IMG/VR virus record: IMGVR_UViG_2534682295_000017
Source of the DNA: a virus
Taxonomy: Duplodnaviria > Heunggongvirae > Uroviricota > Caudoviricetes
Reading direction: 5' to 3' (one strand)
Length of the DNA: 8,139 bases
In this document: in pieces, positions 6,076 to 8,139 of the stretch
Numbering within the stretch: the first letter of the stretch is position 1
How the letters are laid out: each line of letters begins with the position of its first letter
The notes under the pieces: model-generated
Databases searched by the model: none
The model's input: the letters and a program-made list of their open reading frames with translations, nothing else
Told to the model about the DNA's origin: nothing
Made by a program: the position numbers and the translations under genes

Positions 6076-6355
6076 CGCGATAACGGTCAAAAATTATGGC
6101 GCTGACACTTTTGTGCCACTGGAGATGACTGTACCTAAGTTCAGGGGAGAAGAACACGTCCGGTGGGATGGTCGGGCCAGATTTAAAGGGCAGGTCATGG
6201 CTCCAGCCTGTACGCTGGCAATGGAGGCTGCCTGGCGGGAAATTGATATGGGAACCACGCCACTCAGGGATTTACTGCCGGTCCAGAGAATAAATTCCTG
6301 TTACGGTTACACCACTGTGATCTTGCAAGTGCAGGAAAGTAGGTCTACACGGTAA
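6044..6355 (+). pseudogene. possible remnant of a fimbrial major-subunit gene (N-terminal conserved block only)
   Basis: The translated segment RARFKGQVMAPACTLAMEAAWREIDMGTTPLRDL parallels the conserved N-terminal block of type 1 fimbrial subunits (FimA TVHFKGEVVNAACAV...VQLGQVRTASL). There is no signal peptide and the downstream sequence diverges. Confidence 0.3.
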
Positions 6356-6581
6356 CGCGAGTGCGTGTAACTTTTGATGTCATTCCCGTAGAAACACCGG
6401 ACAAATTTTCGCTGACAGGTCATGCAGAAGGTATAAATCTGCAGATTATGGACAATTACGGATATCCGGCAAGAGCCGGAAAAAGCATGCCGCCTCTAAT
6501 TCTCAGTGGAAGATGGACTTGATTATACTCATTGCATTGTCAGAAATAGTTATCCATTAAAGGCTGGCTATTCCAAACAGG

Positions 6582-6609
6582 ATGTTGATTACAAAAATGT
6601 AATCAACAT
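6582..6609. promoter_or_regulatory. 12-bp perfect inverted repeat, candidate operator upstream of the binding-protein gene
   Basis: ATGTTGATTACA-aaaa-TGTAATCAACAT lies in an AT-rich region about 165 bp upstream of the ATG at 6774. A TATAAT hexamer sits at 6636-6641. Confidence 0.35.
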
Positions 6610-6773
6610 GTAAGGTTTATACTCTTCAATATGCGTATAATTTTCCTTATTTTGTTGACTTTAAATAACAAGCTATGCACGAGGTAAAGTCGGATAAGTT
6701 TATCTGGATGTAATATATATTATTTGTAGTGTTTATAACTTTATTTCATGATAACCAATAAAAGGAGTTTTTT

Positions 6774-7532
6774 ATGAGGAACATAATGGCAGGTTTTTTA
6801 ATATTCCTGTCTTCTGCTGCTTATGCTGATATCAATCTGTATGGTCCTGGTGGCCCGCATACAGCCTTGCTTGATGCAGCCAAACTTTATGCCGAAAAAA
6901 CAGGTATTATAGTGAACGTTCATTACGGCCCACAGAACAAATGGAATGAAGATGCCAAAAAAAATGCAGATATCTTGTTTGGCGCATCAGAACAATCTGC
7001 TCTGGCTATCATTCGGGACCATAAAGACAGCTTCAGTGAAAAAGATATTCAGCCTCTTTATCTGCGAAAAAGTATTTTACTGGTAAAGAAAGGTAATCCT
7101 AAAAATATCCGGAGTATTGACGACCTGACCAGACCTGGGATTGGCGTAATTGTTAATGATGGTGGTGGTACCAGTAATACATCAGGCACTGGCGTCTGGG
7201 AAGATATTGCCGGACGTAAAGGGAATATAGAAACTGTCGCCGCAATCCGAAAAAATATTATTTTATATGCGCCCAATAGCGGAACTGCACGTAAGGCTCT
7301 TGAGAATCAGCCTGGAGCAGATGTCTGGATAACCTGGGCTGACTGGGCAGCCAGTAATCCAGAAATTGGTGATGTCGTGGAAATAGCGCCAGACTACGTG
7401 ATATGGCGTGATATGAACATTACAGTACGTCAGGATGCAAATGATGAAACCCGTCGATTTGCAGAATGGCTACAAACCGATGAAGCGGCGCCTGCATTCA
7501 AAAAATATGGCTGGACCAGGAAAGGCACTTGA
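6774..7532 (+). CDS. secreted periplasmic substrate-binding protein, ModA-like fold, orphan
   Basis: RBS AGGAG lies 7 nt upstream. Predicted signal peptide MRNIMAGFLIFLSSAAYA with an A-Y-A cleavage motif. The mature protein shows the type 2 periplasmic binding-protein pattern seen in ModA (INLYGP..., ADILFGASEQ, C-terminal KKYGWTRK compared with ModA KRYGFTIK). No permease or ATPase gene is adjacent. Confidence 0.75.
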   Translation: MRNIMAGFLIFLSSAAYADINLYGPGGPHTALLDAAKLYAEKTGIIVNVHYGPQNKWNEDAKKNADILFGASEQSALAIIRDHKDSFSEKDIQPLYLRKSILLVKKGNPKNIRSIDDLTRPGIGVIVNDGGGTSNTSGTGVWEDIAGRKGNIETVAAIRKNIILYAPNSGTARKALENQPGADVWITWADWAASNPEIGDVVEIAPDYVIWRDMNITVRQDANDETRRFAEWLQTDEAAPAFKKYGWTRKGT

Positions 7533-7533
7533 C

Positions 7534-7564
7534 ATCCTCGTCCTTCAGGACGTGGATTCTTTTT
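7534..7564 (+). terminator. intrinsic terminator of the binding-protein gene
   Basis: Stem CGTCC (7539-7543) / GGACG (7548-7552) with loop TTCA, further flanking pairs, then a T-rich run 7557-7564. Confidence 0.6.
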
Positions 7565-7590
7565 CCGGATGCCGCGCCAGCGGCATGTAG
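7565..7590. repeat. REP-like palindromic unit
   Basis: CCGGATGCCGCGCCAGCGGCATGTAGG contains the stem ATGCCGC (7569-7575) / GCGGCAT (7580-7586) and resembles the E. coli REP consensus GCCGGATGCGGCG...CCTAC. Confidence 0.3.
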
Positions 7591-7651
7591 GGGCAGCTCA
7601 CAAAACGGAAAAAATTGTACGCTAAGCCTCGCCAGGTGAACTGAATTCATT

Positions 7652-7675
7652 CCGATATGGGAATTCCCATATCGG
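7652..7675. promoter_or_regulatory. 24-bp perfect palindrome of unknown function
   Basis: CCGATATGGGAA/TTCCCATATCGG, a 12+12 inverted repeat with no spacer, centred on GAATTC, lies between the binding-protein terminator and the hok leader. Confidence 0.3.
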
Positions 7676-7779
7676 GCGAAAACGGTTTGCTGTAACGGCA
7701 GAGTTAAGTAGGATTGCTGCGGGTGCTTGAGGCTATCTGCCTCGGGCATGAACACCAACGGCAGATAGATAAAAGCCCC

Positions 7780-7867
7780 ACCCGACTATAAATCGAAGTG
7801 AGGCCCCTATATGCTCGTCACATATAGATTGCCTCTTACGGACCGAAAGGTCAAGGAGAAGCAGGCT
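7780..7867. promoter_or_regulatory. hok leader region: in-frame upstream start (mok-like), stem-loop, and candidate antisense sok promoter
   Basis: An upstream in-frame ATG at 7811 with GAGG 7 nt before it extends Hok by 19 codons. A 7-bp inverted repeat CTATATG-ctcgtca-CATATAG (7807-7827) spans that ATG. The minus strand carries TTGACC (plus 7844-7849), which could serve as the -35 of a sok-type antisense promoter. Confidence 0.35.
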
Positions 7868-8023
7868 ATGAAGCAGCAAAAGGCGATGTTAATCGCCCTG
7901 ATCGTCATCTGTTTAATCGTCATAGTGACGGCACTGGTAACGAGGAAAGACCTCTGCGAGGTACGAATCCGAACCGGCCAGACGGAGGTCGCTGTCTTCA
8001 CAGCTTACGAACCTGAGGAGTAA
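7868..8023 (+). CDS. hokD: Hok/Gef-family type I toxin (51 aa)
   Basis: MKQQKAMLIALIVICLIVIVTALVTRKDLCEVRIRTGQTEVAVFTAYEPEE is a single-TM Hok-family peptide (compare R1 Hok ...[25 protein letters not shown]) and is near-identical to RelF/HokD as I recall it. AAGGAG lies 9 nt upstream. The symbol rests on that recollection plus the Qin-like context. Confidence 0.85.
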   Translation: MKQQKAMLIALIVICLIVIVTALVTRKDLCEVRIRTGQTEVAVFTAYEPEE

Positions 8024-8093
8024 GAGACCAGGCGGGGGAGAAATCCCTCGCCACCTCTGATGTGTCAGGCATCCTCAACGCACCCGCACTTAA

Positions 8094-8118
8094 CCCGCTT
8101 CGGCGGGTTTTGTTTTTT
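8094..8118 (+). terminator. intrinsic terminator of the hok transcript
   Basis: CCCGC (8094-8098), UUCG tetraloop (8099-8102), GCGGG (8103-8107), followed by TTTTGTTTTTT (8108-8118). Confidence 0.8.
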
Positions 8119-8139
8119 CCTGGCATTCTGGTTTACAAT

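Follow-up and report, generated by a model that had tools for sequence, protein, structure and literature searches.

A hok/mok/sok type I toxin-antitoxin cassette, very probably complete, from the early region of a lambdoid prophage resembling Qin and PPompW

Location and genes of the locus

The stretch of DNA analysed here, referred to as the window, is 8,139 nucleotides long and contains, at positions 7687-8118, what is very probably a hok/mok/sok cassette of the hokD/hokC/hokW subfamily, a complete type I toxin-antitoxin unit. The carrier is, with equally high confidence, a Qin/PPompW-like lambdoid prophage of the E. coli O157 type, whose early region has the cassette between the adhesin moron paa and rem. 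The upstream gene (6774-7532) encodes a 252-aa protein with a solute-binding fold (PF13531) and is annotated as paa, an AcfC-family adhesin, in genomes 99.9% identical to the window. The hok gene lies downstream of it at 7868-8023, in agreement with an earlier note on this DNA that had described a Hok following a binding-protein gene. The window ends 21 nt past the hok terminator and rem falls outside it; in the PPompW prophages of O157 (99.5% identity to the window) the locus is situated between paa and rem. The locus had also been described as lacking relBE, and a tblastn search of the window with K-12 RelB and RelE returned nothing at E <= 1. Masking of relBE by misassembly was ruled out because positions 793-8117 are collinear, at 99.9% identity, with a complete O157:H7 chromosome in which paa is again the upstream gene.

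Copies of the cassette with 99.5-100% identity exist in PPompW prophages and in more than 560 E. coli records, and 566 records have a leader that matches the window at 99% identity or more, although much of this conservation may simply reflect clonal O157-type lineages. Up to approximately seven such hok loci are found in O157 genomes. The RefSeq label at this position covers the 51-aa hokD coding sequence only and leaves out mok, sok and the RNA elements. The hok/mok/sok layout seen here is standard for the subfamily, has been in phage database records for years and is not new. A search of the literature for the locus tags ECs1773 and Z2054 and for 'sokD' gave nothing relevant, and expression data for the window copy were not found.

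The Rfam family sok (RF01794), the model strand of which is the strand of the hok mRNA leader, matches the plus strand at 7721-7870 with 103.9 bits (gathering score 59, E = 2.2e-23). The match is full-length (model positions 1-157 of 157), with model position 1 aligned at 7721 and the final three model positions aligned with the hok AUG. The locus had earlier been placed at 7780-8118, and the features listed for that span are all present, but the cassette begins approximately 90 nt further upstream. The shorter span leaves out 7721-7779, which are the first 59 nt of the hok mRNA and hold the tac and ucb elements and the 3' end of Sok, and it also leaves out the hok promoter at 7687-7714.

The hok toxin gene (7868-8023, plus strand) encodes a 51-aa protein of the HokD type that matches Pfam PF01848 (HOK_GEF) over the whole profile (all 42 positions; 75.9 bits, the cut-off being 22; E = 1.7e-21) and carries the RefSeq name 'type I toxin-antitoxin system toxin HokD' (WP_032287685.1). 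It was said to be nearly identical to K-12 HokD, and a single residue change, T17I, separates the two. K-12 HokD has been reported to be toxic when expressed (bioRxiv 10.1101/2025.08.07.668861), and since the window copy is one conservative residue away, its toxin is plausibly functional. The hok Shine-Dalgarno sequence (SD) AAGGAGA (7853-7859, plus strand) is sequestered in the predicted fold of the full-length mRNA, where 7856-7859 pairs with 7834-7837 in a helix (helix 6) with 98.7% pairing among relatives.

The in-frame start at 7811

A second plus-strand reading frame of 70 aa begins at ATG 7811, runs in the frame of hok and shares its stop codon (7811-8023). The start is preceded by the SD GAGG at 7800-7803 with a 7-nt spacer, and lies within a region (7800-7835) that combines the mok translation initiation signals with the Sok target. 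There, 7807-7813 is predicted to pair with 7821-7827 around the loop 7814-7820 (CUCGUCA), a hairpin that is also part of the Rfam consensus structure, and the dcb element GCCUC follows at 7831-7835. Both the SD-led in-frame start and the stem-loop spanning it had been recognized in the earlier note; its reading of the start as a replacement for a separate mok frame, and hence possibly as an alternative regulatory arrangement, does not hold, the layout being the usual one for the subfamily. Judged by its annotated homologues, the start at 7811 is mok, because mokC/hokC, mokW/hokW and the Rac-SA53 pair are annotated identically, with the same 57-nt offset and one stop. In K-12 (RefSeq), mokC is 210 nt and hokC 153 nt long with one stop codon, giving the 57-nt in-frame offset, and sokC is annotated on the opposite strand, its overlap with mokC covering the opening 9 nt of mokC. 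VT2-Sakai has the same geometry, with mokW of 213 nt, hokW of 156 nt and sokW of 71 nt, 933W is annotated likewise, and the 213-nt ORF of the window is present in identical form in PPompW_EH2201 as 'gef: phage maintenance protein'.

Since mok is in the hok frame in this subfamily, initiation at 7811 would also yield a 70-aa extended Hok, and this product could be a functional long isoform with a basic, cytoplasmic N-terminal extension (MLVTYRLPLTDRKVKEKQA), acting as a modulator or as a second form of the toxin in the manner of the in-frame dual start of the lambda S107/S105 holin-antiholin. The shared frame, found in six of the 11 loci compared (window, Evi, pD17EC, hokW, Rac-SA53 and hokC), and the basic character of the extension would suit such a protein, but in four other close relatives (Rac 442/2, a P1 variant and two plasmids) mok lies in the +1 frame and specifies an unrelated 68-aa product; in the eleventh locus, phage 666R9, mok has decayed. 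Two compensating single-base indels separate the in-frame loci of the window/hokC type from those of the hokW type; they restore the 57-nt offset, which would favour a functional long Hok, but alter the seven codons between them (PLTDRKV versus ASYVPKG). Between the indels the nucleotides are conserved and the Mok peptide is not, and this points to a constraint on the mok region at the level of RNA rather than protein. The report that hokW-sokW aids lysis upon induction of phage Sp5 (PMC8621323) would give a long Hok a possible task, whereas in plasmid R1 what counts is that mok is translated, not what it encodes (PMC9841398). On balance, a functional long isoform is considered very unlikely, and it is hardly to be expected that its extension tunes how soon or how strongly the membrane is damaged when the prophage is induced. 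The 7811 start is referred to below as mok, the leader frame through which hok would be controlled.

Predicted hok mRNA and Sok RNA

A promoter for the hok/mok mRNA is predicted by homology at 7687-7714 (plus strand), with the -35 hexamer TTGCTG at 7687-7692, a 16-nt spacer, the -10 hexamer TAGGAT at 7709-7714 and a +1 G at 7721. The -10 hexamer aligns with TAGAAT in hokW, Evi and Rac, TATAAT in hokC and TATGAT in the R1 type, and the -10 of the relatives is always located 6 nt ahead of the conserved GGGTGC 5' end. The leader begins with GGGUGCUUGAGGCU, which is invariant across ten relatives. From the Rfam match and the predicted fold, the full-length hok mRNA would be a plus-strand transcript of approximately 397 nt (7721-8117), reaching from the 5' end GGGUGCUUGAGG to an intrinsic terminator. 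The RNA of 7721-8117 has a predicted minimum free energy of -164.8 kcal/mol (z = -8.09), and none of 100 dinucleotide-preserving shuffles was as stable.

Complementarity between the two ends of the hok mRNA had been named beforehand as a test of the locus, and it is present (7721-7732 with 8073-8085). The tac element at the 5' end (7721-7732, plus strand) is predicted to pair in the full-length RNA with the fold-back inhibitory element fbi (CCUCAACGCACCC, 8073-8085, plus strand), 7721-7726 with 8080-8085 and 7727-7732 with 8073-8078, leaving one bulged base; the helix appears in both the minimum-energy and the centroid folds and rests on exact inverted repeats of 9 nt and 13 nt. In the same full-length fold, the anti-Shine-Dalgarno box ucb (AAGCCCCAC, 7773-7781, plus strand) engages the mok SD region, 7775-7781 pairing with 7798-7804. 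When the RNA was shortened in silico to 8072 or 8065, 7721-7728 paired instead with 7773-7779 (AAGCCCC), so that the partner of tac became ucb, and in the RNA ending at 8065 the mok SD (7800-7804) paired with dcb (7831-7835) around the nested target hairpin, as in the Rfam consensus. These tac/fbi, ucb and dcb interactions are those described for plasmid R1 (PMC9841398).

The predicted fold was projected on 11 loci that are 80-99% identical to the window, and 91.7% of the pair cells were standard, against 38-42% when the 3' partners were slid by 1-3 columns, a comparison favoured by the derivation of the structure from the window sequence itself. Pairs changed on both sides numbered 17 in the 11 loci and 3-10 in the slid controls. 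The tac/fbi helix (helix 1) is 93.3% paired in relatives, and the ucb/mok SD helix (helix 4) is 99% paired, with four of its nine pairs changed on both sides. The hok mRNA of the R1 type, for which an intact copy was used and a copy cut by IS150 without the 5' end was left out, folds with the ends GGCGCUU/AAGCGCC paired, and therefore both ends differ together between distant members of the family.

The intrinsic terminator (8092-8118, plus strand) had been described as a strong UUCG terminator and is found as such, with the hairpin AACCCGC-UUCG-GCGGGUU at 8092-8109 (a 7-pair stem with five G-C pairs) followed by a T run (tail TTGTTTTTTC). An isrK-like match in the hok 3' UTR (8032-8113) reached 27.2 bits, below the gathering score of 50, and was not regarded as meaningful because only two generic hairpins align.

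On the minus strand, a Sok antisense RNA of approximately 53 nt is predicted from 7819 to approximately 7767, its ends being projected from the annotated sokW and sokC, which start opposite the ninth base of mok. The predicted RNA starts with G at 7819 and consists of a single-stranded 5' tail (GACGAGCAU, 9 nt free), one long hairpin and the tail GGGGCUUUUAUCU, with a fold of -21.4 kcal/mol. A 5' tail, one hairpin and a U tail are common to the predicted Sok RNAs of all 10 relatives. The RNA is 53 nt long in the window, 57 nt in hokC and 73-75 nt in most relatives, where it is longer because the leader carries an extra hairpin of 21-22 nt that is missing from the window and from the similarly short hokC leader. 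Homology to the sokC and sokW promoters places the predicted Sok promoter at 7826-7854 (minus strand), with -35 TTGACC at 7854-7849, a 17-nt spacer, -10 CAATCT at 7831-7826 and the start at 7819; the corresponding sites are TTGACC-17-CACTCT in K-12 sokC and TTGCCT-17-TAACCT in sokW. The -10 hexamer is weak, with two of six consensus matches, and retains A at position 2 and T at position 6. The possible antisense promoter of the earlier note thus corresponds to a site homologous to the promoters of sokW and sokC, but it does not emerge from a generic consensus scan: a sigma-70 scan of 7533-8139 found no site on either strand, the hok and Sok promoters included, and both promoters were therefore called by alignment, with annotated sokW/sokC and with the regions upstream of hok genes. 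Both the promoter and the Sok transcript are thus putative.

Proposed mechanism, activity and significance

By analogy with plasmid R1, a weak constitutive promoter would give rise to a stable hok mRNA of approximately 397 nt. In its closed form, tac would be paired with fbi, ucb would hold the mok SD and the hok SD would also be paired, so that neither frame is translated. Slow trimming from the 3' end would remove fbi and let tac capture ucb, upon which the mok SD and start codon would be displayed in the sokT hairpin. The short, unstable Sok would pair at sokT, block translation of mok and mark the duplex for RNase III. If Sok synthesis stopped, ribosomes would translate mok through the hok SD, and coupled translation of Hok, a 51-aa membrane toxin, would follow. 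In R1, 3' processing, cleavage of the duplex by RNase III, toxicity and killing on loss of Sok have been shown (PMC9841398), and for hokW-sokW this has been done in part: it is by experiment a toxin-antitoxin system of type I, in which HokW is toxic and is counteracted by sokW expressed from its own promoter (PMC8621323). HokW is produced upon mitomycin C induction and the locus approximately doubles the release of phage Sp5 (PMC8621323). For the window copy, the activity of the two promoters, the Sok transcript, 3' processing, translational coupling, toxicity and the biological role are all attributed by homology; it most likely works like hokW-sokW, and its role may be prophage maintenance or, as reported for hokW-sokW, assistance to lysis on induction.

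An alternative is that the sequence is intact but functionally silent, a decaying relic that rides along with the prophage and in which the hok mRNA, Sok or both stay below useful levels. Both -10 hexamers are one step further from consensus than in most relatives (TAGGAT against TAGAAT for hok, CAATCT against TAATCT or TAACCT for Sok), which would agree with a relic, as would the empty generic promoter scan and a leader 21-22 nt shorter than in most relatives; in the hok -10, however, the key bases A (position 2) and T (position 6) are preserved, and the predicted Sok promoter has the architecture seen in K-12 sokC, an annotated sRNA gene in RefSeq. Decay is known among relatives: hok is frameshifted in phage 666R9 (41 aa), the K-12 hokC locus is disrupted by IS186, and a copy of the R1 type is cut by IS150. 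In the window, by contrast, nothing is broken or wrongly spaced among the ORFs and the two SDs, the tac, fbi, ucb and dcb elements and the terminator, and the RNA is predicted to fold very stably. In print, the majority of chromosomal hok loci are regarded as inactive, and those that had been tested before did not bring about post-segregational killing, as stated by work that bioRxiv 10.1101/2025.08.07.668861 cites. Since an active hok would kill in combination with a silent Sok, hok would have to be the first to be silenced. Given the slightly degraded -10 hexamers and the reports of no post-segregational killing by chromosomal hok, a silent relic is rated as unlikely though by no means negligible, and a cassette working like hokW-sokW is the preferred reading.

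Beyond correct annotation, the importance of the locus is small, the layout being already annotated and its close paralogue hokW-sokW already characterised experimentally. If the window copy is active, it may contribute to the retention of EHEC prophages or to lysis on induction, as has been reported of its paralogue, and with up to approximately seven such loci in an O157 genome, cross-talk among different Sok RNAs becomes an incremental question. The comparison also shows the K-12 relBE-hokD arrangement cited by textbooks in another light, as the truncated and less common form: among 5426 complete E. coli genomes, the relE-hokD junction was present in 1167 and a leader-bearing locus of the window type in 2167.

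Comparison with known systems

The K-12 relB-relE-hokD operon of Qin, in which hokD (relF) is the third gene, aligns with the window only over 7854-8117 (98.5% DNA identity), and the sequence upstream is unrelated; similarity thus begins 14 nt before the hok ATG. What remains in K-12 hokD is the stretch from the hok SD through the ORF and 3' UTR to fbi and the terminator, and both loci have an identical UACG editing motif at the Tyr47 codon; missing from K-12 are the hok promoter, the tac and ucb elements, the start of mok, the Sok target and the sok gene, which the window has or is predicted to have. The leader 7721-7853 has no K-12 counterpart, relE lying 71 nt upstream of hokD in its place. 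The prophages are otherwise alike, rem and ydfU being found downstream of hokD in K-12 Qin and likewise in the PPompW and O157:H7 prophages, and the dicB-ydfC-dicA-dicC early region being common to the PPompW/O157:H7 prophage type and Qin. Because every other relative examined (hokW, hokC, Rac, Evi, P1-type, plasmid copies and R1) carries the full leader, K-12 relBE-hokD is, on this comparison, a derived and truncated form, in agreement with the published view that hokD lost its canonical components by rearrangement (PMC12214031). The earlier proposals that the window locus retains its own regulatory elements and may represent the ancestral arrangement are both upheld by this comparison.

The hokW/mokW/sokW locus of the Stx2 phages Sp5 (= VT2-Sakai) and 933W is approximately 86% identical to the window in DNA over the whole cassette. 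Its 5' tac and 3' fbi sequences are identical to those of the window, and three primers of PMC8621323 match the window exactly, at tac and fbi. As in the window, mok is in frame, is 70 aa long with a 57-nt offset, and is carried by a lambdoid prophage. The two differ at the C-terminus of the toxin (VDYESEK in HokW, TAYEPEE in the window), in the two compensating indels that alter seven Mok codons, in the extra 21-22-nt hairpin of the hokW leader, with a sokW of approximately 71-75 nt against a Sok of approximately 53 nt, and in the sokW -10 hexamer (TAACCT against CAATCT). hokW is located near the right end of Sp5, whereas the window locus occupies the early region between paa and rem.

K-12 hokC (gef)/mokC/sokC shares with the window the in-frame mok (69 or 70 aa, with the N-terminus MLNTCRVPLTDRKVKEKRA against MLVTYRLPLTDRKVKEKQA in the window), the short leader without the extra hairpin and the promoter build TTGACC-17-CA(C/A)TCT (predicted for the window) of sokC, an annotated sRNA. 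The DNA is approximately 80% identical, and HokC, of 50 aa, has several substitutions in the transmembrane segment. In K-12, IS186 is inserted just past the hokC stop codon, where the window has fbi and the terminator, and hokC forms a chromosomal islet outside any prophage, whereas the window locus is prophage-borne.

The hok/mok/sok (parB) locus of plasmid R1 has the same logic and order of elements as the window, with tac-fbi pairing, an SD-led mok, a target hairpin that spans the start of mok, a Sok promoter (predicted in the window) within the mok leader and the conserved segment GCCUCUUAC...AAGGAGAAG, and its hok mRNA of approximately 398 nt is close to the approximately 397 nt predicted here. 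R1 Hok is only approximately 40-45% identical to the window Hok, R1 mok is read in another frame than hok, unlike in the window, where the two share one, and the tac/fbi pair is GGCGCUU/AAGCGCC in R1 and GGGUGCUUGAGG/CCUCAACGCACCC in the window. The R1 locus is plasmid-borne, and it is there that post-segregational killing has been proven.

Reading frame of mok and the Sok-encoding leader

Among the 11 hok loci examined, the reading frame of mok, the leader frame upstream of the toxin gene, varies relative to hok between close relatives. It is in frame with hok in six of the 11 and in the +1 frame in four, the comparison being made between loci L006, L009, L012 and L013 and the window, L003, L004 and L007. 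In phage 666R9 mok has decayed, and the hok of that phage is frameshifted as well, giving 41 aa. The leader of the window (7780-7800) lacks a 21-22-nt hairpin segment, CATTACGCGTCCTGCAAGACG, when aligned with loci L004, L006, L007 and L008; the segment is present in hokW, Rac, Evi, and the P1-type and plasmid relatives. Because of this absence, the antisense RNA Sok is predicted to be ~53 nt long rather than ~75 nt, and the K-12 hokC locus is short like that of the window. The closing stem of the predicted Sok hairpin is preserved via changes on both sides.

Upstream boundary and disruption of hok cassettes

The gene directly upstream of the hok cassette is paa (6774-7552, including the hairpin), a virulence-associated moron encoding an AcfC-family adhesin, which has a terminator-like hairpin of its own at 7539-7552. 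Immediately preceding paa in the matching O157:H7 genome is a fimbrial-protein pseudogene with a frameshift, which corresponds to approximately 6080-6613 of the window. A perfect 24-bp palindrome (CCGATATGGGAA/TTCCCATATCGG; 7652-7675), with an EcoRI site at its centre, stops 11 nt short of the predicted -35 element of hok, on the upstream side. The palindrome is restricted to the paa-linked copies (L001, L005), is absent from other hok loci, and is positioned where the likeness between different hok cassettes stops. Such a sequence may represent an operator, or else a scar left by recombination. In the R1-type hok locus of an IncF plasmid (L014; NZ_LC520268.1, 1-340), IS150 has removed the 5' end, with loss of the promoter, tac and ucb, and this is a further case of IS-mediated inactivation of hok loci.

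Other small RNA matches

A DicF-like match at 641-690 (- strand; 43.5 bits, E = 4.3e-07) scores slightly below the Rfam gathering score of 48, and is adjoined by an STnc100-like match (447-652, - strand; 32 bits). Both are located in the prophage's early region, on the dicB side, a position consistent with a Qin-like dicF-dicB operon. A sub-threshold Rfam isrK match at 8032-8113 (+ strand; 27.2 bits versus a gathering score of 50) spans the hok 3' UTR hairpin and terminator, but is probably not meaningful, as its alignment shows two generic hairpins only.

Tyr47 codon of Hok

The sequence contains the TadA editing motif UACG (8006-8009) at the UAC codon of Tyr47, within GCUUACGAA, and this tyrosine is the conserved C-terminal Tyr of Hok. 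R1-type hok shares CUUACGAA with the window. The sequence at the motif in K-12 hokD is identical to that of the window, and ~6 % A-to-I editing, changing Tyr to Cys, has been reported for hokD (PMC12214031).
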